Shown piece by piece: positions 5,291-64,000 of a stretch of DNA of 64,000 bases (its first letter is position 1; every line of letters starts with the position of its first letter). The translations under genes were made by a program, and so were the position numbers. Under the pieces are notes generated by a model, which searched no databases, was not told the origin of the DNA, and worked only from the letters and a program-made list of their open reading frames with translations. Origin of the DNA: a virus; IMG/VR virus record IMGVR_UViG_3300023296_001674, one strand, 5' to 3'.

Positions 5291-6112
5291 ATGAGATATT
5301 TAATATATGCACTTTTGAACCCAACAACTGACATGCCATTTTATATTGGATGGACTGACACTAAACAAAAAGGTATTAAACGACCATTTGAGCACTTTAA
5401 TGAAGAACGACGTCAGGGTGAAAAAATAACATCGGGAAATAGATTGAAGCTGAATACTATACGCAAAATGCGTAAAAATGACATAGAGCCGAGTGTTGAA
5501 GAGATATATTACACCGATGATTTTGATCATTCTTTAGATATAGAAAAAATGTTTATATCACATTGGGGCAGACGGGATAAAAACGAAGGAATATTAACCA
5601 ATCTAACCGATGGTGGGCAAGGAACGGTGGGTGTAAAAGATTCGTTGGAAACACGGCGAAAAAAATCTATCGGTAGAATAGGAAAAAAGCATACTGAATA
5701 CTCCAAGCAGTTAATCAAAGAAAAAAGAAAACTTCAATCGCCGACAATATATTCGGATGAAACTAGAAAACAAATGAGCAAGAATGCTTGGATGCGCAAT
5801 AATAAAGGAAAAACATATGAAGAGATGTATGGCATAAATAAAGCAAACGAAAAGAAAAAAAATCAATCTGATTATCTTCGTTTATATAGAGCGAATGAAG
5901 AAAATGAAGAAAAGCGTAAACTTGCTCATAGGTTGACATGGATTAAAAAAATGAAAAATGTTTATATTGATATATTTAGGTTATTAGACGATGGTATTAA
6001 ACAGTATATTATTGTTGATATGTTAAATGTAAGCGTTGATACTGTTCGTAAGGCGAGATTGAATCGCGCTGATATTGAGCATGATATTAATATTATAACA
6101 ATCGAGGGTTAA
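5291..6112 (+). CDS. GIY-YIG homing endonuclease with NUMOD3-like repeats
   Basis: YLIYAL..PFYIG, GILTNLTDGGQG, HTEYSKQLI; GATAAATA and GGAGG upstream. Confidence 0.85.
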   Translation: MRYLIYALLNPTTDMPFYIGWTDTKQKGIKRPFEHFNEERRQGEKITSGNRLKLNTIRKMRKNDIEPSVEEIYYTDDFDHSLDIEKMFISHWGRRDKNEGILTNLTDGGQGTVGVKDSLETRRKKSIGRIGKKHTEYSKQLIKEKRKLQSPTIYSDETRKQMSKNAWMRNNKGKTYEEMYGINKANEKKKNQSDYLRLYRANEENEEKRKLAHRLTWIKKMKNVYIDIFRLLDDGIKQYIIVDMLNVSVDTVRKARLNRADIEHDINIITIEG

Positions 6113-6118
6113 ATAACT

Positions 6119-6829
6119 ATGCGTGCATGGGAAATATTAGAGAATGATGATGTATTAAATTTAAATCCGATAAAAACTGGTGATACCGTTTATGTTGGAA
6201 AATTTAAAAATCGCAAAGCTGAAGTAAAGGGGTTTGAAACGGATGATCATGGTCAGCCCGTACTCAATACAACCAAAGGAAAGCATAAATTATTTAAACC
6301 AAGAATTGATAAACTTAAACCTAAAAACTTGGACGAAGGTAGCCACGAAGACGACGCTGAAGCCTATGCCGCACAACATGGATTAGAGATCGCTGGATGG
6401 GAAGGAAGTGGTGATATGGGTGAGGCTTATGTCACTAATAAGAATACCATTATTAAAGTAACTACTGACAAAACTGAAATGGCAATGGCAGCAAAGTTGG
6501 TTGGTCAAACATTGTCCAATGTTGCTGATGTATACGATGTTCAAGACCATATTATACATATGGAATACTTGGACACCACGGGCGTAGATGATGTATATGG
6601 TGAAGTATCACAATATGATAACGGTGATGGCGTAGAATACATCGATGCCGATGAACATGAAGGTATAAGCGAAGAAGCCATAAAAATGATACAAGACCTT
6701 AGTTATGGAATACATGAACTTGGTAGGAATGGCATTCAAAATCTTGATATCAAGGATGATAATATCGGCAAGAAACCAAATGGTGATTATGCGATGTTTG
6801 ATATGTCGGATGCTAAAAGAGGTGCATGA
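6119..6829 (+). CDS. MRAWEILE-tagged protein kinase-like protein
   Basis: GSGDMGEAY, IIKVT, MEYL, DIKDDNI, FD motifs after a small N-terminal GKFKN domain. Confidence 0.65.
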   Translation: MRAWEILENDDVLNLNPIKTGDTVYVGKFKNRKAEVKGFETDDHGQPVLNTTKGKHKLFKPRIDKLKPKNLDEGSHEDDAEAYAAQHGLEIAGWEGSGDMGEAYVTNKNTIIKVTTDKTEMAMAAKLVGQTLSNVADVYDVQDHIIHMEYLDTTGVDDVYGEVSQYDNGDGVEYIDADEHEGISEEAIKMIQDLSYGIHELGRNGIQNLDIKDDNIGKKPNGDYAMFDMSDAKRGA

Positions 6830-6831
6830 TA

Positions 6832-7752
6832 ATGAGAGCATGGGAACTTTTTGAAAATGAAATAAACGTGAAAGTTAAAGATGCGTCAGATACATTTGGT
6901 AGAGATGGTGCAGAGCAAGTGTTTTATACTGATACTGCGACAAAATCGCGTATAATAATCGCACGTAATCATAGACCTGATGGTTATGCATCAGTTGTGG
7001 AATTATTAGTTCCAGAAGAATTTAGAGGGACGGGCATTGGTAAAAAATTATTAGATAGAGCGATGCAAGATAATCCAAAGATTATGGGTCAAGTGTCATC
7101 AAAAGCGGCGGCAGTTAATGCTTATAAGGCTGGACGTCGACCATATGAGCAACCAGACGCATCATTAGATGATGTATTTAAATCGATAGATCAAGATTCG
7201 TCGGTTAATCTAATGACTAATGAATCCGCCGCACATTATAATGATTATTTTGATGCTAACGCATTAAAAGACCCATCAAAGACAAAATATGGCTCGAATG
7301 AAAAACTTATTACGATGACGCCTGATGAATTTTTAAGTATGGCTGAACATATACCGGCTGGTGCTTCTACTGATAAAGCAGAAAAAGTTAAGGGGTTGAT
7401 AGATTCTGGTACGAAATTTGATTCTGTGCCACATATAGGCTTTACACATGATGGTAACGGTGTAGCCACCGCAGTAGGACACGAAGGTCGTCATAGAGTG
7501 ATGGCACTTAAATCTTTAGGAATAAATGAAATACCAGTATTGTTAACATCTATAGGTGGCGGAGGTGGCAAAATACGATGGGATCAACAATCAGAAAAGA
7601 CTCGCGATACAATAGAAGGTGTTTGGCCTACGGTACTTAAAGGCGAAAGTGGTGGTTCTATAAACTTTCCAATACCAGATATGAGACAGGCGAATGAATC
7701 ATTGACAGTTTTGTCGCCACATGATAAATTAACGAACAATAGATACAGTTAA
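6832..7752 (+). CDS. MRAWELFE-tagged GNAT acetyltransferase / ParB-like fusion
   Basis: VPEEFRGTGIGKKLL (GNAT motif A); HEGRHRVMAL (ParB/Srx-like). Confidence 0.65.
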   Translation: MRAWELFENEINVKVKDASDTFGRDGAEQVFYTDTATKSRIIIARNHRPDGYASVVELLVPEEFRGTGIGKKLLDRAMQDNPKIMGQVSSKAAAVNAYKAGRRPYEQPDASLDDVFKSIDQDSSVNLMTNESAAHYNDYFDANALKDPSKTKYGSNEKLITMTPDEFLSMAEHIPAGASTDKAEKVKGLIDSGTKFDSVPHIGFTHDGNGVATAVGHEGRHRVMALKSLGINEIPVLLTSIGGGGGKIRWDQQSEKTRDTIEGVWPTVLKGESGGSINFPIPDMRQANESLTVLSPHDKLTNNRYS

Positions 7753-7763
7753 AGGATAGTGAT

Positions 7764-9026
7764 ATGAGAGCATGGGAATTATATGAAAATGCAGGCGGCG
7801 ATGCATTGCCATCAGAACAGATGGATTTGTTTCAGTCGTTGCTGACTAAACCCGTAACGGATATTGGCGCGTTGTATAAGAATGCAGGGCATGATTTCCG
7901 TTTTGTTGGTGGTAGCGTTCGTGATTTATTTTTAGGTAAAACACCAAAAGATAAAGATTTTTCCACGACTGCTACACCACAAGAAAGTAGCAAGTTGCTG
8001 CGCGATGCAGGATACACCACTATCGAAAACGAAAATCAATTGGCGCATGGAACTATCATTGTTAAAATCAAAGGCGAAGATGATTTTGAAATCACCACTT
8101 TGCGTGCTGATGAAGAAACTGATGGTCGTCATGCGACTGTAAAGTTTGTAACTGATTGGAAAACCGATGCAGCAAGACGTGATTTGTCTTATAATGCAAT
8201 GAGTCTGGATTTGGAAGGCAATCTTTATGATTATTTTCATGGTGTAGATGATTTGAAAAAAGGAACATCTAATTTTGTTGGCGATTCTGATCAAGATTCT
8301 GAGCAACGCGCTACGCGCCGTATTGAAGAAGACTATCTTCGTACACTGCGCTATTTTAGATTCCAAGGTAGATTGCCAAAACCGCAGTTTGATGAAGGTA
8401 TTTTAAAAGCAATTAAGAACACTGCGTATGGTTTGAACCAATTGTCTGGTGAGCGCGTTTGGGATGAAATGCAAAAAATCTTAAGTGGTGATCATACTCG
8501 TAAAATCTTGGATATGATGCATAAAACAACGGTTGATGAGAATATCGGTTTGCCTCTTAGATATATTGATAATATTGATGTTGTAAAAAAGCATACCAAT
8601 AACTCTGCCACAATTTTGGCATCATTGATTAAGGATGAAGATCAGTTGAGAGAAATCGCTTCTACTGATGGATGGGCACTGTCTAATACTGCTGAAAACA
8701 TCATCTTGTTTATTATCAATCATCGTAAAAATGATATGTCTTATACAGATGTGAAAAATATGTGGTTCAATCCAAAAGTTGATAATATGTATATCAGCGA
8801 GTTGATGAAATATATGGGAAAAGATGGAATACTTAATAAATTACATCAAGAGAAGGTTGAAAAGTTTCCAGTTGCGGGTAAAGATTTAATTGCAGCAGGA
8901 TTGACACCAGGTCCACAAATGGGCGCATTGTTAAATGATCTTAATAAAGAATGGGTAAAATCTGGACACACTAAAACTTGGACTGATGATGAAATATTGG
9001 ATATTGTGAGGAAGGCACAAAAATGA
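7764..9026 (+). CDS. cca: CCA-adding tRNA nucleotidyltransferase (class II), MRAWELYE-tagged
   Basis: VGGSVRD..PKDKDF, EITTLR, DAARRDLSYNAM, EDYLRTLRYFRF, SGERVWDE. Confidence 0.92.
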   Translation: MRAWELYENAGGDALPSEQMDLFQSLLTKPVTDIGALYKNAGHDFRFVGGSVRDLFLGKTPKDKDFSTTATPQESSKLLRDAGYTTIENENQLAHGTIIVKIKGEDDFEITTLRADEETDGRHATVKFVTDWKTDAARRDLSYNAMSLDLEGNLYDYFHGVDDLKKGTSNFVGDSDQDSEQRATRRIEEDYLRTLRYFRFQGRLPKPQFDEGILKAIKNTAYGLNQLSGERVWDEMQKILSGDHTRKILDMMHKTTVDENIGLPLRYIDNIDVVKKHTNNSATILASLIKDEDQLREIASTDGWALSNTAENIILFIINHRKNDMSYTDVKNMWFNPKVDNMYISELMKYMGKDGILNKLHQEKVEKFPVAGKDLIAAGLTPGPQMGALLNDLNKEWVKSGHTKTWTDDEILDIVRKAQK

Positions 9027-14499: not shown

Positions 14500-16221
14500 A
14501 TGTATATGTTTAAAGAAGTCCACGATTCTATCATTACTGCGCTATATGCAACGTTCGCTATTGATGAGAGTAAAACGAATGTTCATAAAATCACAGTAGA
14601 TATGTCGCGCAAAGCCAATAGTGGCGATCTTGCGACCAATGTTGCTATGGTGATAGCCAAAACATATGATATGGAACCAATGGCGTTTGCTGAACGATTA
14701 CTTCCGAGAATAAAAACAATTCATGGTGTTGAATCATGTGTAATTGCACAACCAGGTTTTATTAACCTTACAATGGAACCAATGTGGTGGCTTAAAAATT
14801 TGATGAATATTATGAAAAACGAATCAAATTGTGGAACACGTTCTAAATATAATTCCGCGCATTTTGAATATGTTTCAGCCAATCCAACAGGGCCACTTCA
14901 TGTTGGTCATGCTCGTGGTGCAATCATTGGTGACGTTCTTGCATCTATTTATGATAAATGTGGATATCACGTAACGCGTGAATATTACGTTAATGATGCT
15001 GGAGGTCAGATCGATGTATTGGTTAATTCTGTATATCATGAATATTTAAAATTGAATAACGTAACTGATATCATCATACCACAAGTATACAAAGGTGAAG
15101 TTATTGAATTCCTAGCAAAAGCGTGGAATATGTTTATTAAAGATGAATATATCAACCAAATGCGTGACAACTGGCAAGAGCCATTGCGCGAGTTTGTGTT
15201 GCCGTTAGTTATGGATCGAATCAAAAGTGATCTGAATATGATGGGCGTTAAACATGATGTATTTACACATGAAAGCGAAATTGTGGATAATGGAGGTGTC
15301 GTCGAAGCACTTCATATATTACGTGCACAAGATTTGACATATAAAGGAGTTCTTCCACCACCAAAAGGTAAAGAAGATGCAGCCTATGACAGCCGTAAAC
15401 AACTTTTGTTTAAGTCTACCGAATTCGGCGACGACGTTGATCGTCCATTAAAGAAAGCAGACGGATCGTGGACTTACTTTGCAACAGATATTGCATATCA
15501 TGCTGATAAATTTAAGCGTGGACATAAAAATATGATTAACATCATGGGTGCCGATCATGCCGGTTATACATCACGTATATCCGCCGCAGTTCGTGCAGTT
15601 AGCCATAAGCAAGCCAGAGTTGATACAGTTCTTTGCCAAATGGTCAATCTTGTTGATAATGGCGAAAAAGTAAAACAATCCAAACGTGATGGCACATATG
15701 TCACCGTCGAAGATGTTGTTAATAAAGTGGGTAAAGATGCATTGCGTTTCACAATGATGACTCGTAAAGCAGATGCACATCTGGATTTTGACTATCAAAA
15801 AGTGGTCGAAGAAACTAAAGATAATATGGTATATTATGTTCAGTATGCACACGCACGTGCTCATTCTGTTTTAAATAAAGCAGTCGAACGACCCGAATTT
15901 GAAGATATTTGCGTGGAAACACTATCTCGTTTAAATAATGAAAACGAAATGTCCATTGTGAAACACTTATCAACATGGGGTGATATCTTGCAAAAAGCAG
16001 CAGATAAAAAAGAACCACATCATATTACATATTATCTATATGAACTTGCTGGATTGTTTCATTCATTACACAGTAAAGGCAATAACGATAAACAATTACG
16101 TTTCTTGATTGAAAATGACGATGAACTACAAATGGCGCGATTAATACTTGTGCAAAGTGTAGCACATGTGTTAAAATCAGGACTTGACGTATTGGGTGTA
16201 TCAGCACCAACAAAAATGTAA
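14500..16221 (+). CDS. argS: arginyl-tRNA synthetase
   Basis: EYVSANPTGPLHVGHARG, REYYVNDAG, GADH.GY, YVQYAHAR; TTGACG..TATAAT promoter upstream. Confidence 0.97.
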   Translation: MYMFKEVHDSIITALYATFAIDESKTNVHKITVDMSRKANSGDLATNVAMVIAKTYDMEPMAFAERLLPRIKTIHGVESCVIAQPGFINLTMEPMWWLKNLMNIMKNESNCGTRSKYNSAHFEYVSANPTGPLHVGHARGAIIGDVLASIYDKCGYHVTREYYVNDAGGQIDVLVNSVYHEYLKLNNVTDIIIPQVYKGEVIEFLAKAWNMFIKDEYINQMRDNWQEPLREFVLPLVMDRIKSDLNMMGVKHDVFTHESEIVDNGGVVEALHILRAQDLTYKGVLPPPKGKEDAAYDSRKQLLFKSTEFGDDVDRPLKKADGSWTYFATDIAYHADKFKRGHKNMINIMGADHAGYTSRISAAVRAVSHKQARVDTVLCQMVNLVDNGEKVKQSKRDGTYVTVEDVVNKVGKDALRFTMMTRKADAHLDFDYQKVVEETKDNMVYYVQYAHARAHSVLNKAVERPEFEDICVETLSRLNNENEMSIVKHLSTWGDILQKAADKKEPHHITYYLYELAGLFHSLHSKGNNDKQLRFLIENDDELQMARLILVQSVAHVLKSGLDVLGVSAPTKM

Positions 16222-38333: not shown

Positions 38334-38526
38334 TTGGTGTGATGCCACCAATGATGAGAAGCGAGGTTACAGTCGCAAAAAACCATTCAAATAATGATGC
38401 TCATAATTTATTTGTATACGATGAGTCGTAGATTGGACTGCGTTAGTTGTAGAGGGTGGAGAGTTTTACTCGGTGAAGCCGTTATGCGACATTCAATGTT
38501 TTTTAATATACGATAAGGTGTGCCAT

Positions 38527-39870
38527 ATGTATGAAATAACACTAGTTACTATTTTATTTCTTTTATTTGGTGTAGCAGTAGGAACATTTTCTGGATTGCT
38601 TCCGGGTATAGGAGCAACAGTATCGCTTCTTTCTTTATATCCATTCCTTATCCACGTCGAACCAATGAATATTATTATTTTTTATATCGCTCTACTGAGT
38701 ACCAGTCAATATATGGGTTCAGTTAGTTCCACGGTGTTGGCTATTCCTGGTGAACTGAGTAGCCTACCTGCCGTCACAGAAGGGCATAACTTATATTTGC
38801 AAGGGAAAGGTGCATACGCTATATCGGGAACTGCCATTGGCTCTTGGGTGGGTTCATTTTTCTCTGTTATATTCGTGTTGTTTATTAGTTCATATTTGGT
38901 GAATTTTGTATTTTTTTATAGCACAATTTTTCAAAGTGTGTTGTTGTTATCGGTTTGTGCATTGTTTATAGTTACTGGACATAATAGGTGGTACATTAAT
39001 GCATTGTTATGCGCTGTTGGGTATTTTCTTGGTGCTATAGGAACGCACTCGATAACACAACAATCGTTTTTGGTTTTTGGAATACCGGAACTTATTCAAG
39101 GATTGCCGTTATTTCCTATATTGATAACATTATATATAATACCAGAAATCGTAAAAGGTTTTAATAAACAACATTATAATAATGTCGATTTTTCATATCA
39201 AAGCCAACCAATGATGAGTCATATTAAAGTTGCTCTGAATAATTTTGGTTCTATTTTAAGAGGATCATTTATAGGTTTTTTTGCAGGATTGATACCATAT
39301 TTAACTACGATTGTCGCTTCTAATTTGAGTTATTCTATAGAAGTGTGGTTGGAGAAAAGAAAAAACACATATTCGGTTGGTAATTTACCGTCTTTGATTT
39401 CCTCTGAAACTGCCAATAATGCAGCAGCATTGAGTAGTTTATTGCCATTGTTGTTATTGGGCCTACCAATAACTTCGTCTGAAGCAATACTTTCTAATAT
39501 ATTGTCATATTCTGGACATTTTTTTATGTTAGAAAGTTTTACAGGATTGTTTATTTCTATCGCGATTTGTTTGGTGATTATAAACAGTTTGGCATTAATT
39601 TTATCGTGGCCCATTGTTAAATATTTTCGATTTTTTTATAAAATAGATATGAAAAGTTTATATACATTCATTATTGCGTTGTTGTTTTCATTGATGATAT
39701 ATAATGGGTTATATAACGAACGAGTAATTTATTATATATTGATAACAGTGACGATGGCACCATTGAGTTTTATATTACGTAAAACAAACACGATGCCATT
39801 GATTTTCGTTTTCATGATGCAAAATGAAATAGAATCAAATTTATTTAGACTGCCATATTTGCTGTTTTGA
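38527..39870 (+). CDS. tctA: tripartite tricarboxylate transporter TctA-like permease
   Basis: GLLPGIG, QY.GS...IPGE, ETANNAAA..PLL.LG.P; many TMs. Confidence 0.85.
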   Translation: MYEITLVTILFLLFGVAVGTFSGLLPGIGATVSLLSLYPFLIHVEPMNIIIFYIALLSTSQYMGSVSSTVLAIPGELSSLPAVTEGHNLYLQGKGAYAISGTAIGSWVGSFFSVIFVLFISSYLVNFVFFYSTIFQSVLLLSVCALFIVTGHNRWYINALLCAVGYFLGAIGTHSITQQSFLVFGIPELIQGLPLFPILITLYIIPEIVKGFNKQHYNNVDFSYQSQPMMSHIKVALNNFGSILRGSFIGFFAGLIPYLTTIVASNLSYSIEVWLEKRKNTYSVGNLPSLISSETANNAAALSSLLPLLLLGLPITSSEAILSNILSYSGHFFMLESFTGLFISIAICLVIINSLALILSWPIVKYFRFFYKIDMKSLYTFIIALLFSLMIYNGLYNERVIYYILITVTMAPLSFILRKTNTMPLIFVFMMQNEIESNLFRLPYLLF

Positions 39871-43155: not shown

Positions 43156-43715
43156 ATGAAACAGAATGTATACTTTACATCTGATCTTCATTTAGGTTAG
43201 CCTTCGGGCTAATTTATGAAGGACATACTAATATTATTAAATATTGCAATAGACCATATGTGGATGCCGACGAAATGGATGCCGCACTTATAAACAACTG
43301 GAACTCCGTGGTACAACCGGACGACATTGTTTATAACTTGGGCGATTTTACTTTTTCAAGAAATGCTGAAAAATACCTAGCACGATTGAATGGAGTGAAG
43401 CACTTAATCAAAGGCAATCACGACAAACAACCTAGCCCAAGTCAGGGATGGGCAAGCGTCAATGATTACCGTGAAGTGCGTGTAGAAGGACAATTCATTG
43501 TTCTTATGCATTATTCTATGAAAGTTTGGAATAAATCACACGGCGGCGCTTGGCAATTGTTTGGTCATTCGCATAATACCCTCCCTGATGATCCAAATGC
43601 ATTATCTATCGATGTAGGCGTAGATGCTCATGGTTACTTTCCGATTTCTTTTAGAGATGTGAAAAGAATTATGGCAAAGAAAAACTACAAACCGGTTGAT
43701 CATCATGGAAGATAA
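43156..43715 (+). CDS. calcineurin-like metallophosphoesterase interrupted by a 26-nt coding gap (43198-43223)
   Basis: TSDLHLG | HTNII..RP, LGDF, GNHD, H, GHSH, DVGVD; AGGAGG RBS. Confidence 0.85.
43193..43223 (+). other. candidate translational bypass element (T4 gene 60-like)
   Basis: GGT-TAG-CCTTCGGGCTA hairpin ... GGA landing codon. Confidence 0.7.
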
Positions 43716-50069: not shown

Positions 50070-51281
50070 ATGAATGAGTTATGGGTATTATTTTTACAAG
50101 TATTTGATATGACGTTTTTTGGCATGACCACTTCGCATATATTGGGTGGTTCCATTGTGTTGTTATTGTTTATTGTTTTGCGAAAATTGTTCGCGAAAAC
50201 AGTTGTTGCATATTTGACTAAAATGGCTAAAAAAACTAAAAATGAATATGATGATCAAGTCCTAGAAGCGATAACTGAACCCATTAAATTGGTTCCTATT
50301 GTCTTTGGTATATTCTTTTTAACGCAATGGTTCGCGCTTCCGGTTGATATCGTAACGATGTTGCTCAATTTGACAAAATCTATGATTGCATTTGCGTTAT
50401 TTTGGGCGGTATATAATTTATTGGAACCATTCACTGTGTTATTGGAGAGTGTTTTGACTAAAATAACCGCAGACAACGAAACATTATATGCAGAAGAATT
50501 TACAGGATTGATTGTCAAAGGATTGCGCATCACTGTAGTGGGTGTTGGTGGCATCATCGTCCTATCACAATGGGGCGTGGATGTTATGCCTGTATTGGGC
50601 GGATTGGGTATTATGGGCATGGCTTTTGCTTTTGGTGCACAAGATTCTATTGCTAATATTTTTGGCGGTGTAAAGATTTTGCTGGATGGTCAATTTAAAC
50701 GGGGAGATTGGATTAAAACGCCAGATATTGAAGGAACTGTAATGGAGATTGGTATCGCAACCACAAAAGTTCGTGAGTTCGACAAAGCGGTTACATCTAT
50801 TCCTAATAAGCAGTTATCTGATGCGACAATCAAAAATTATAGTAAAATGACCAATCGTCGAGTTAAGATGACATTGGGTCTTGAATATAGTTCTACTGCA
50901 AATCAATTAGAGAATGTAGTTGACCGTATTAAAGAATATTTGCAAAACAATCCCACGGTAGCCCAACCTGGCATCGATAAGGTTGTTCAGATGGTGCATT
51001 TGGTGAACTTTGCTGGTTCCTCTATTGATATTAGTTTGTATTACTTTACCAAAACGATAAAATGGACTGAATGGCGTGAAAACGTTCAAGATGATATGTT
51101 GGCATTCAAGCGAATCGTTGAAAAAGAGGGTGCAGCCTTTGCCTTTCCTAGCCAAAGTATGTATCTTGAATCAACGCCAACCAAACCTAAATCGGTTGAA
51201 GACGTTCCACGATTGGCGTATGTTGGTAAGAAAAATGTGGCACAGGCGGGTGATGATGAAGAAGGTGACGGAGATGGCTAA
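50070..51281 (+). CDS. mscS: small-conductance mechanosensitive channel
   Basis: AFGAQD.IAN.FGG, GDWI, EG.V.EIG..TT, IPN, FAFPSQ. Confidence 0.92.
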   Translation: MNELWVLFLQVFDMTFFGMTTSHILGGSIVLLLFIVLRKLFAKTVVAYLTKMAKKTKNEYDDQVLEAITEPIKLVPIVFGIFFLTQWFALPVDIVTMLLNLTKSMIAFALFWAVYNLLEPFTVLLESVLTKITADNETLYAEEFTGLIVKGLRITVVGVGGIIVLSQWGVDVMPVLGGLGIMGMAFAFGAQDSIANIFGGVKILLDGQFKRGDWIKTPDIEGTVMEIGIATTKVREFDKAVTSIPNKQLSDATIKNYSKMTNRRVKMTLGLEYSSTANQLENVVDRIKEYLQNNPTVAQPGIDKVVQMVHLVNFAGSSIDISLYYFTKTIKWTEWRENVQDDMLAFKRIVEKEGAAFAFPSQSMYLESTPTKPKSVEDVPRLAYVGKKNVAQAGDDEEGDGDG

Positions 51282-59443: not shown

Positions 59444-60136
59444 ATGAATTATTCAAATAGTACATCTAGAATCGCAACACGAGGTGACGAAACAGTTAAT
59501 GAATACATGACTCGTGTATACAATTATATGACAATAGGTTTATTGATATCAGGATTGACCGCGTGGTTTGTTTCTGTTACACCCGCTTTGATGAGCGTTG
59601 TCTTCAGTGCGCCGTTGATATGGATTATTATGTTTGCGCCACTAGTAATGATTTTCTTTTTTAGTAATACGCTAAATAACGCATCACCAGCAGGTGCTCA
59701 ACTTTGGTTTTGGATATTTGCGTTTTTGGAAGGATTGATGCTTTCATCTATCGCATTGCATTATACAGGTGAATCAATTATCACAGTATTTTTCATTACA
59801 TCTGCTATGTTTGCTAGTTTAAGCCTATATGGATTAACCACTAAAAAAGACATGAGTGGATGGGGTAAGTTTTTGTTTATGGCACTAATCGGACTAATAA
59901 TCGTTATGGTAATTAATATTTTCGTTGCCAACGCAATGATGCAAATATTGATTTCTATTGCAGGTGTGTTGTTATTTTCCGCACTTATCGCATATGATAC
60001 ACAGCGCATCAAAGATGAATTTATTTCATATGGTGATATTAATAATTCCGCAGTTCAAGGTGCATTGAGTTTGTATTTAAATTTCTTGAATATGTTCTTA
60101 TTTTTGTTGCAATTATTCGGCTATAAGAACGATTGA
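59444..60136 (+). CDS. Bax inhibitor-1/YccA family membrane protein
   Basis: VYNYM..GL, YG.TTKKD, AYDTQRIK, ALSLYL.F.N.F. Confidence 0.9.
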   Translation: MNYSNSTSRIATRGDETVNEYMTRVYNYMTIGLLISGLTAWFVSVTPALMSVVFSAPLIWIIMFAPLVMIFFFSNTLNNASPAGAQLWFWIFAFLEGLMLSSIALHYTGESIITVFFITSAMFASLSLYGLTTKKDMSGWGKFLFMALIGLIIVMVINIFVANAMMQILISIAGVLLFSALIAYDTQRIKDEFISYGDINNSAVQGALSLYLNFLNMFLFLLQLFGYKND

Positions 60137-62634: not shown

Positions 62635-63420
62635 ATGAAAAATTATCATCTATATATTATCACCAATAAGGTGAACGATAAGAAATACGTCGGGATAACC
62701 AAGAAAGGGTATCAATATAGATTTAACTGGCATCTTGATGATGCACGACGGCATTCTCCAAAGCAAAATAATATAGTATTATATCATGCTATTAGAAAAC
62801 ATGGATCAGAAAATTTTGTAGTAGCATTATTAGAAGAAGGTGATTCATGGAAACATTTATGTGACTTGGAACGTGCTGCTATTATAAAACATAATACATT
62901 TATGGGTGTCAAAAAATCGCATGGGTATAATATGACTAAAGGTGGTGATGGCGTTAGTGGCATGACTTGGAAATGGTCAGAAGAACAAAAATTAGATTTT
63001 AAGAACCGCGTTGTTAATACTAAAGAATACAGACAAAAAATCAGCGATAATAACGCTAGATATTGGTTTGGAAAAACGGTAAGCGATGAAAAGAAAGCAC
63101 AAATATCTAAAAAGCTGAAAGGTGTTTGTGGTAAAAAATGTATAATTGATGGCGTAATATATGATTCGGCATTAACTGCGTCTAAAGCATTATCATTGCA
63201 TGTTGAAACGGTACGCAAGCGATGTCGACAAAAATATAAAGATTATAGATTTGTTGCGGGATATAATGACACATGTGGCACACCGCGACCATGTATAATA
63301 GATGATAAGCGGTATGAATCAATAACCGCCGCATCTAAAGGATTAAATTTGAAGACCGCTACTATACGAAAGCGGTTGAATGATGAGGAATTGGTTGATT
63401 ACAATTATGTTATTGACTAA
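62635..63420 (+). CDS. GIY-YIG homing endonuclease with NUMOD1-like tails
   Basis: LYIITN..KKYVGIT, HAIRKHG, GYNMTKGG, IIDG..Y.S...AS repeats. Confidence 0.88.
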   Translation: MKNYHLYIITNKVNDKKYVGITKKGYQYRFNWHLDDARRHSPKQNNIVLYHAIRKHGSENFVVALLEEGDSWKHLCDLERAAIIKHNTFMGVKKSHGYNMTKGGDGVSGMTWKWSEEQKLDFKNRVVNTKEYRQKISDNNARYWFGKTVSDEKKAQISKKLKGVCGKKCIIDGVIYDSALTASKALSLHVETVRKRCRQKYKDYRFVAGYNDTCGTPRPCIIDDKRYESITAASKGLNLKTATIRKRLNDEELVDYNYVID

Positions 63421-63475
63421 TAGGCAATCTTGAGGTAAGATTGTTTTTTAATTACTAAAAAAGGAGACCATTATT

Positions 63476-63985
63476 ATGGCTAAAGAAGAATTTTCGCGTG
63501 ACAAGCCACACGTTAACATTGGTACAATCGGTCAACTGGCTGCGTAATCTAGTAATAGATTAATGAAAACACCTTTAATTGCTGGAACCTCTAAACAAGT
63601 AATGTTGTAGACAATCAGCAGCCAAGCCCATACATGGGAAGGTTCAACGACTAGTCGAAAGACGTAGGCTCAAATGAGTCGAAACGGGGTGCATCTTACA
63701 GAGATGAAGATATAGTCTGATCTATATGGAAACATATAGCAGGGTTAAGACCCGGATTAGAAATTAATGAATCTGATCGAACATCAAATGCACGTTGACC
63801 ACGGTAAGACAACTCTTACCGCCGCAATTACCAAAGTTATGGCTGAGAACGGTGGAGGTGAATTTACAGATTTCGCCGATATCGATAATGCTAAAGAAGA
63901 AAGAGACCGTGGAATTACTATTTCAACGTCGCACGTTGAATATGAAACTGAGAAGTCTCATTTTGCGCACATAGATTGCCCGGGT
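63476..63985 (+). CDS. tuf: elongation factor Tu, exons 1 (63476-63532) and 2 (63791-63985); continues past window
   Basis: [19 protein letters not shown]|[36 protein letters not shown]. Confidence 0.95.
63533..63790 (+). mobile_element. group I intron (258 nt, no ORF) in tuf
   Basis: 5' exon ends U, intron ends G; core aattgctggaa, aatcagcag, gttcaacgactag, aagatatagtct; splicing restores GHVDHGKT. Confidence 0.92.
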
Positions 63986-64000
63986 CAAATGGCTCCGTAA
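63986..64000 (+). mobile_element. probable 5' end of second group I intron in tuf
   Basis: DCPG|caaatggctccgtaa resembles first intron start caactggctgcgtaa; expected His absent, in-frame stop. Confidence 0.7.

Follow-up and report, generated by a model that had tools for sequence, protein, structure and literature searches.

We report that the right-hand end of a 64,000-nt stretch of viral DNA (hereafter the window; IMG/VR virus record IMGVR_UViG_3300023296_001674) carries the beginning of a tuf gene, encoding the elongation factor EF-Tu, interrupted in its P-loop by a short group I intron without an open reading frame (ORF), and that a gene for a GIY-YIG homing endonuclease lies just upstream. 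Our data suggest that this is likely a tuf gene of a jumbo phage of the T4 superfamily, with a self-splicing intron in the P-loop, a probable sister intron at a second site and a homing nuclease gene upstream. The initial annotation had assigned this arrangement to positions 62635-64000; the visible features are all found there, but the span opens with the nuclease gene and tuf starts only with the ATG at 63476. The main features are:

62635-63420, + strand: free-standing GIY-YIG homing-endonuclease gene, 261 aa (PF01541, phrog_314 and I-TevI alignments)
63462-63466, + strand: Shine-Dalgarno sequence AGGAG, 9 nt before the tuf ATG (read from the sequence)
63476-63532, + strand: tuf exon 1, 19 codons, ending in GGU (translation; tblastn against full-length EF-Tu)
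63533-63790, + strand: group I intron 1, 258 nt, ORF-less, subgroup IA-like, with a terminal G (RF00028; helix check)
63791-63985, + strand: tuf exon 2, 65 codons, HVDHGKTT...RGITI...DCPG, ending in GGU (PF00009, phrog_6880 and alignment)
63986-64000, + strand: start of a probable second, sister group I intron, 15 nt, CAAATGGCTCCGTAA (likeness to the 5' end of intron 1)

The tuf gene and its P-loop intron

Intron 1 matches the Rfam model RF00028 from end to end (model positions 1-253 of 253) with 99.2 bits (gathering score 50; E-value 5.5e-26), and it is the sole match to this model in the 194-kb record of which the window is part. The insertion falls between two codons of the tuf P-loop, those of Gly18 and His19. 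The intron boundaries are set by the protein frame and by the rules that the 5' exon ends in U and the intron in G: U63532, the end of the 5' exon, pairs with G63539 as the splice-site U-G wobble, and the last intron base is G63790.

Every helix was checked base by base using a script. P1 is formed by exon CGGU (63529-63532) and intron GCUG (63539-63542), giving 4 bp. The P1 register assigned automatically by Rfam leaves the splice-site U unpaired and was replaced by a register set by hand. For P10, UG and CAAC of the P1 loop pair with CA and GUUG of exon 2. Pairing is complete in P2, P3 and P4 (6/6 in each), P5 (4/4), P7 (5/5), P8 (5/5) and P9 (7/7), where P7, the guanosine-binding helix, consists of GACUA paired with UAGUC. 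P5a, P6, P6a, P9.1 and P9.2 are also present, and the loops of P2 and P9 are GUAA and GAAA, respectively. Moreover, two small additional hairpins were identified, P7.1 (GUC-GAAA-GAC at 63654-63663) and P7.2 (GGCUC-AAAU-GAGUC at 63667-63680). Extra P7.1 and P7.2 hairpins that follow the 5' strand of P7 and precede the 3' strand of P3 reportedly mark subgroup IA, as proposed by Michel and Westhof in 1990, and their presence suggests that intron 1 is subgroup IA-like. Its folding z-score is -3.7, and the sequences most similar to it belong to introns of Twort-like Staphylococcus phages (approximately 74% over approximately 205 nt). In frame with exon 1, the fifth codon of the intron is TAA; such stops are frequent at the 5' ends of bacterial and phage introns, where they are described as stalling ribosomes while the ribozyme folds (PMC3984707).

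When exons 1 and 2 are joined, they encode 84 aa of uninterrupted EF-Tu N-terminus, with no frameshift or stop, in which the G1 motif GHVDHGKT, the switch I motif RGITI and the G3 motif DCPG are all intact. Exon 2 (195 nt) scores 70.8 bits against PF00009 and matches phrog_6880, "translation elongation factor". The RF00028 score, the full set of helices and the restoration of EF-Tu upon exon joining thus bear out an ORF-less 258-nt intron in the P-loop, as first read from the sequence. The N-terminus was compared by alignment with 118 EF-Tu N-termini, among which Lys54 (NAKEE) is common only to EF-Tu genes of large viral contigs (5/118, all viral). The nearest tuf sequences are those of marine Gamma- and Alphaproteobacteria (77-83%), and in a tree of the 73-column N-terminus the fragment lies on a long branch (0.42 compared with a median of 0.075). 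The suggestion in the initial annotation that the phage copy replaces host EF-Tu destroyed by Lit-like defences found no support: the Lit cleavage context, RGITI, is unchanged in the phage tuf copy, and Lit resistance was rejected because this motif is conserved.

The probable second insertion site and the upstream nuclease gene

The second insertion site lies 195 nt after the end of intron 1, with exon 2 in between. After DCPG the frame reads QMAP followed by a stop in place of the invariant HADY. Since the record ends at position 64000, only 15 nt of the second insertion are visible; these (CAAATGGCTCCGTAA) match the start of intron 1 (CAACTGGCTGCGTAA) at 13 of 15 bases. With up to three mismatches, the 18-mer GGTCAACTGGCTGCGTAA is found in the window only at the two tuf sites (0.02 occurrences expected by chance). 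Intron nucleotide 10 and exon position -4 are G with C at site 1 and C with G at site 2, and owing to this compensatory change P1 has 4/4 pairs at both sites. By a rough estimate of our own, the chance that two random substitutions in 15 nt would compensate P1 exactly is approximately 4%. The in-frame TAA is at the same place in both introns. Furthermore, the junction peptide ...DCPGQMAP was also found in a protein (P0001) encoded on a separate 562-nt ENA contig; the junction is therefore present in a second assembly and is not peculiar to one.

Together these 15 nt point to a second, sister intron at DCPG|H, which we consider probable. With respect to the earlier proposal of a related second intron, its start is thus credible, as judged by the 13/15 identity and the compensatory P1 pairing, while the part that can be seen is limited to 15 nt. 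The two junctions had both been described as GGT|CA, and this is the case at both insertion sites. The comparison made in the initial annotation with a hop element at 43198 was also examined, and GGT TAG followed by a hairpin is indeed present at that position. A ribosome hop of the T4 gene-60 type was considered for DCPG itself and rejected, as the stop is five codons past the Gly rather than adjacent to it and the sequence copies the 5' end of an intron.

The gene upstream of tuf encodes a protein with an N-terminal catalytic domain followed by two putative I-TevI/NUMOD-like DNA-binding repeats. It matches PF01541 with 34.5 bits (cut-off 22.6; 2.6e-08) and phrog_314, "homing endonuclease", with 2.8e-40; the scores against PF20987 (23.7 bits) and NUMOD1 (17.9 bits) are under their respective cut-offs. 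Aligned with the I-TevI catalytic domain (1MK0), the protein retains Y..YVG as well as Arg in RFNWH and Glu in LERAAI, although the similarity is weak (phmmer E-value 0.007), as is the match to the DNA-binding domain of I-TevI (1I3J; E-value 0.05). In isolated phages, the gene has its closest counterparts in Seg-like genes of the T4-like group (identity ≤32%). From the nuclease stop to the tuf ATG the distance is 55 nt, and the gene ends 112 nt upstream of insertion site 1. A free-standing GIY-YIG nuclease beside tuf, as originally noted, is supported by the PF01541 score, the phrog_314 match and the 55-nt spacing.

No relatives of the nuclease were found in IMG/VR, and a search for paralogues on the 570,750-bp contig described below gave only the gene itself. 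The nearest homologue (P0123) is 52% identical, has 261 aa like the query and is encoded on a 29,567-nt Logan contig. It is the sole close homologue, and its contig could tell whether the nuclease-tuf arrangement also occurs in a related phage.

Genomic context and searches for related genes

The IMG/VR record behind the window comprises 194,073 bp, is labelled "provirus" and has a CheckV completeness of 51%; the window is its final part. In an exact-sequence look-up, a 570,750-bp contig was found to carry both the nuclease gene and the exon-2 ORF. The left end of the record cuts a gene and is therefore a true contig end. Its right end (64000) coincides exactly with the stop of the exon-2 ORF and is therefore a trimming boundary, beyond which the pipeline judged 376.7 kb to be non-viral. 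There is no match to tyrosine (PF00589) or serine (PF00239) integrases in the 194-kb record, and no tRNA or att-like feature near its end (no tRNA in the last 24 kb, 40000-64000); that is, the record shows neither an integrase nor an att site or tRNA at its boundary, features that would be expected of an integrated provirus. The "provirus" cut has the appearance of a giant phage having been trimmed automatically where a host-like gene begins to be called, and the case would show that this procedure can split a giant phage genome.

The record holds a T4-type TerL, a major head protein, a portal and a gp41 helicase. A family B DNA polymerase is absent from the 194 kb, so part of the phage lies elsewhere and the phage is incomplete within the record. 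Among isolates, the TerL sequences closest to that of the record (approximately 49% identity) come from two jumbo phages, Phosso (469 kb) and PA5oct (287 kb), while TerL relatives in IMG/VR (approximately 50% identity) belong to whole viral genomes of 518,643 bp (with terminal repeats), 607,744 bp and 561,116 bp. Given this range of 519-608 kb, the 570,750-bp parent contig fits a complete phage of the clade. A search with the Phosso DNA polymerase was uninformative, the contig not being in the best 120 of 8000 matches. These TerL relatives are without tuf and without group I introns, which makes both lineage-specific additions.

Directly before the tuf gene lie the nuclease gene and 60 kb of phage ORFs in the same orientation, and there is no fusA or tRNA context; in the bacterial tuf loci that were examined, fusA is upstream of tuf. 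Host-like genes are also found within the part classified as viral, i.e. a CCA-adding enzyme (7764-9026) and a full arginyl-tRNA synthetase (14500-16221), and further ones in the window encode a TctA transporter (38473-39870), an MscS channel (50070-51281) and a BI-1/YccA homologue (59444-60136). No further match to the other piece of tuf (His84, the G4 motif NKxD, domains II and III) was found in the 194-kb record.

To place the gene among other tuf genes we compared approximately 230 tuf loci, 76 from IMG/VR, 80 from metagenomes and 80 from GTDB (the best 80 among 185,579 species genomes). None of these loci exceeds 81% identity with the 84-aa fragment. The 80 GTDB loci were compared by identity only; among the 156 IMG/VR and metagenome loci checked for gene structure none is split at the G|H sites, and none of the 11 of these that were scanned, seven having an interrupted or truncated tuf frame, has a group I intron. 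In a search of 5.8 billion proteins the only split form of tuf was the ORF of the window itself. The exact 51-nt junction had no match in metagenome or genome contigs, collections that may be without the record itself or near-identical ones. The intron 5' motif gave six matches in IMG/VR, none of them an intron, and literature searches for a group I intron in bacterial or phage tuf or EF-Tu returned nothing relevant. These data support the earlier statement that an intron-bearing phage tuf is unusual, with 0/156 structure-checked loci split at this place and no locus above 81% identity.

Proposed mechanism, alternatives and related systems

We propose that tuf would be part of a phage translation-gene set that includes a tRNA array, the arginyl-tRNA synthetase and the CCA-adding enzyme. 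As predicted from the intron structure, which bears all the structural marks of a self-splicing ribozyme, the primary transcript would self-splice using guanosine as cofactor. Pairing of exon CGGU with intron GCUG in P1 would select the 5' splice site and P10 (UG and CAAC with exon CA and GUUG) would align exon 2, while the in-frame TAA five codons into the intron would stop ribosomes so that the ribozyme can fold. Splicing would then restore GTIG|HVDHGKT at the P-loop. The putative sister intron would be located at Gly83-His84 of switch II, just before the catalytic His84, with its guide adapted accordingly (GGGU with GCUC), as suggested by the 15 nt available. By analogy with known homing systems, the nuclease might in mixed infections cut tuf alleles that have no insertions, and repair from the phage genome could co-convert the introns close by together with the nuclease gene, through collaborative (trans) homing or through marker exclusion of the Seg type; in the phage's own tuf copy, the introns would destroy the nuclease sites.

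Such collaborative or trans homing is known for the psbA intron of cyanophage S-PM2 with F-CphI and for the T4 nrdB intron with mobE (PMC3984707, PMC2790892). As at the tuf locus, an intron that is ORF-less (or has a defunct ORF) is located in a conserved gene beside a free-standing nuclease gene. In those systems, however, the nucleases are Endo VII-like and HNH enzymes, and cleavage at the insertion site has been shown experimentally, whereas the nuclease beside tuf is of the GIY-YIG type. It shares with I-TevI of the T4 td intron and with the T4 Seg proteins the GIY-YIG domain with Tyr, Arg and Glu and a putative C-terminal DNA-binding module of the I-TevI type, but I-TevI is intron-encoded while the present enzyme is free-standing, only weakly similar and matches the DNA-binding families below the Pfam cut-offs. 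Collaborative homing by the upstream nuclease is plausible on this analogy, and plain marker exclusion of the Seg type is about equally likely. Alternatively, the nuclease might be unrelated to the introns, i.e. a Seg-like enzyme targeting a flanking gene of related phages, the introns having spread alone and one of them having been reverse-spliced into another GGU|CA to give the second site. In T4-like genomes, GIY-YIG genes that stand free are widely dispersed, with two weak paralogues in the record, and the two insertion sites have nothing but xGGU|CA in common, a stretch that fits the length of the guide sequence and not a nuclease site. Since a nuclease gene beside an ORF-less intron matches the documented cases of collaborative or trans homing (PMC3984707, PMC2790892), we regard this explanation as possible but somewhat doubtful. 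The shared xGGU|CA and the co-varying guide base do hint that one intron seeded the other, and the 15 nt are in keeping with intragenic spread of one intron to a second site by reverse splicing. A more elaborate scenario, in which the introns are sisters by reverse splicing into a second xGGU|CA of one mRNA, the guide having then co-varied with its new exon, and the nuclease cuts the P-loop or switch II coding DNA of any intron-less tuf, including host copies, so that the introns provide immunity for a replacement EF-Tu during host shut-off, appears unlikely to us.

Several observations weigh against a phage-encoded, intron-bearing tuf. P1 has only 4 bp, the core of intron 2 is outside the record and so is tuf from His84 onward with domains II and III, leaving 84 aa visible. 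IMG/VR classed the 376.7 kb past 64000 as non-viral. Arg is replaced by Ser at position 75 and Tyr by Phe at position 77, both invariant in the 118 other EF-Tus, and these substitutions could represent decay. The N-terminus is bacterial in style and unlike the shortened N-termini of other jumbo-phage EF-Tus, and the 73-column tree is unresolved and does not group tuf with the jumbo-phage EF-Tu clade. The GC content at third codon positions (GC3) of tuf is 0.357 compared with 0.256 ± 0.043 for the phage ORFs, 2.3 standard deviations above them and higher than in 98.7% of the ORFs, which fits recent capture and equally a host gene. Finally, the search for relatives yielded no tuf allele lacking the introns or the nuclease, and homing is thus without comparative support. 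Some of these points, together with the trimming of the record from the 570,750-bp contig exactly at the exon-2 ORF stop and the similarity (77-83%) to marine proteobacterial sequences, would also be expected if tuf were a bacterial host gene next to a prophage of which the nuclease gene is the last gene. We find this improbable: the 194 kb have no integrase and end without a tRNA or att-like feature nearby, just 55 nt separate the nuclease stop from the tuf ATG, the TerL kin are large lytic-type jumbo phages with complete genomes of 519-608 kb, and the GTDB species compared are all at most 81% identical in what is the most conserved segment of tuf. In addition, Ser75 and Phe77 occur in 0/118 tufs, group I introns are rare in bacterial protein-coding genes (PMC3984707), and a homing nuclease beside an intron-bearing gene would have to be a coincidence. 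The two substituted positions and the long branch could instead mean that tuf is a decaying or truncated remnant without a functional EF-Tu, the 15 nt after DCPG being a partial copy left over from the 5' end of the intron or the scar of a recombination event; the same gene is seen in no relative, and nothing is visible downstream. This is very unlikely considering that the reading frame, Shine-Dalgarno sequence, P-loop, RGITI and DCPG are intact, with no frameshift or stop, and that intron 1 keeps every helix. The sole guide change in intron 2 complements the exon change, for which chance is the approximately 4% estimated above, and this suggests that splicing at the second site has been under selection. 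Hence, because there is no integrase and no nearby tRNA and the TerL relatives are complete phages of 519-608 kb, tuf is in our view very probably phage-encoded, and its history is most likely a fairly recent capture from a marine proteobacterium.

Huge phages are known to encode EF-Tu (Al-Shayeb et al. 2020, PMC7162821). In the jumbo-contig loci that we compared (L011-L040), tuf is found among tRNA and translation genes as in the present phage, but none of the approximately 20 genes examined is split at G|H and none of the four scanned using Rfam has a group I intron. Jug jumbo phages have approximately 18 small ORF-less group I introns together with stand-alone nucleases, the split genes being terL, nrdD and the DNA polymerase gene and not tuf (PMC12880540). 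Twort orf142 and its counterparts in Twortvirinae resemble tuf in having related short ORF-less introns (230-290 nt) within one phage protein gene. Three or four tandem ORF-less group I introns are present in such Twort-like genes, and one record annotates four Intron_gpI in a row. They differ in that the intron-bearing gene encodes a virion protein in Herelleviridae and not tuf in a T4-like jumbo phage, and, unlike at the tuf locus, no GIY-YIG gene is adjacent in the stretch that was viewed. In Staphylococcus phage CIFT_MFB_MRSA28 (127844-128997), four tandem ORF-less introns, those most similar to intron 1, were observed just after the tail sheath gene, with exons of only approximately 35-70 nt between them.

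Since Twort-like and jumbo phages were already known to carry multiple ORF-less introns and stand-alone nucleases, what is new here is the host gene, tuf, and the insertion sites. tuf is among the most conserved genes in biology. Insertions in the P-loop and at the codon preceding the catalytic His agree with the rule by which the least variable DNA is preferred by introns and homing nucleases. To the phage genes known to bear such elements, which serve DNA metabolism or encode structural proteins, they add one of the translation apparatus. If the second insertion is indeed a sister intron, the matched change in guide and exon would represent a natural example of intron retargeting.

One further feature was identified between the nuclease gene and tuf:

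63425-63449, + strand: AT-rich hairpin CAATCTT-GAGGT-AAGATTG followed by T6 (read from the sequence)

This hairpin with its T6 tract is possibly a weak terminator, and it was missed in a scan for consensus terminators because its stem has too few G-C pairs.

Other tuf genes with unusual structures were also seen. In eight IMG/VR contigs of 83-437 kb (L033-L040), tuf, located at approximately 6001-7130 of each, constitutes a separate, very divergent clade of jumbo EF-Tu (branch length 3.95), in which switch I reads AKGGTVRDxxKTVTI and not APEExxRGITI, without the RGITI segment; these genes are inside dense tRNA arrays. The tuf gene of another jumbo contig (L029, 6195-6588) is interrupted: HADYIKN is followed directly by a stop and an insert that is GC-rich and has no group I match. 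The insert encodes a fragment of a methyltransferase with a DPPW motif (MT-A70-like) and may be a mobile insertion or a sign of a chimeric contig. In a 100-aa EF-Tu fragment (P0084) from a 984-nt Logan contig, unrelated sequence abuts exactly at G|HVDHGKT and again following DCPGHAD. The fragment may represent a further tuf gene split at this P-loop boundary, caused by an organellar or eukaryotic intron or some other element.

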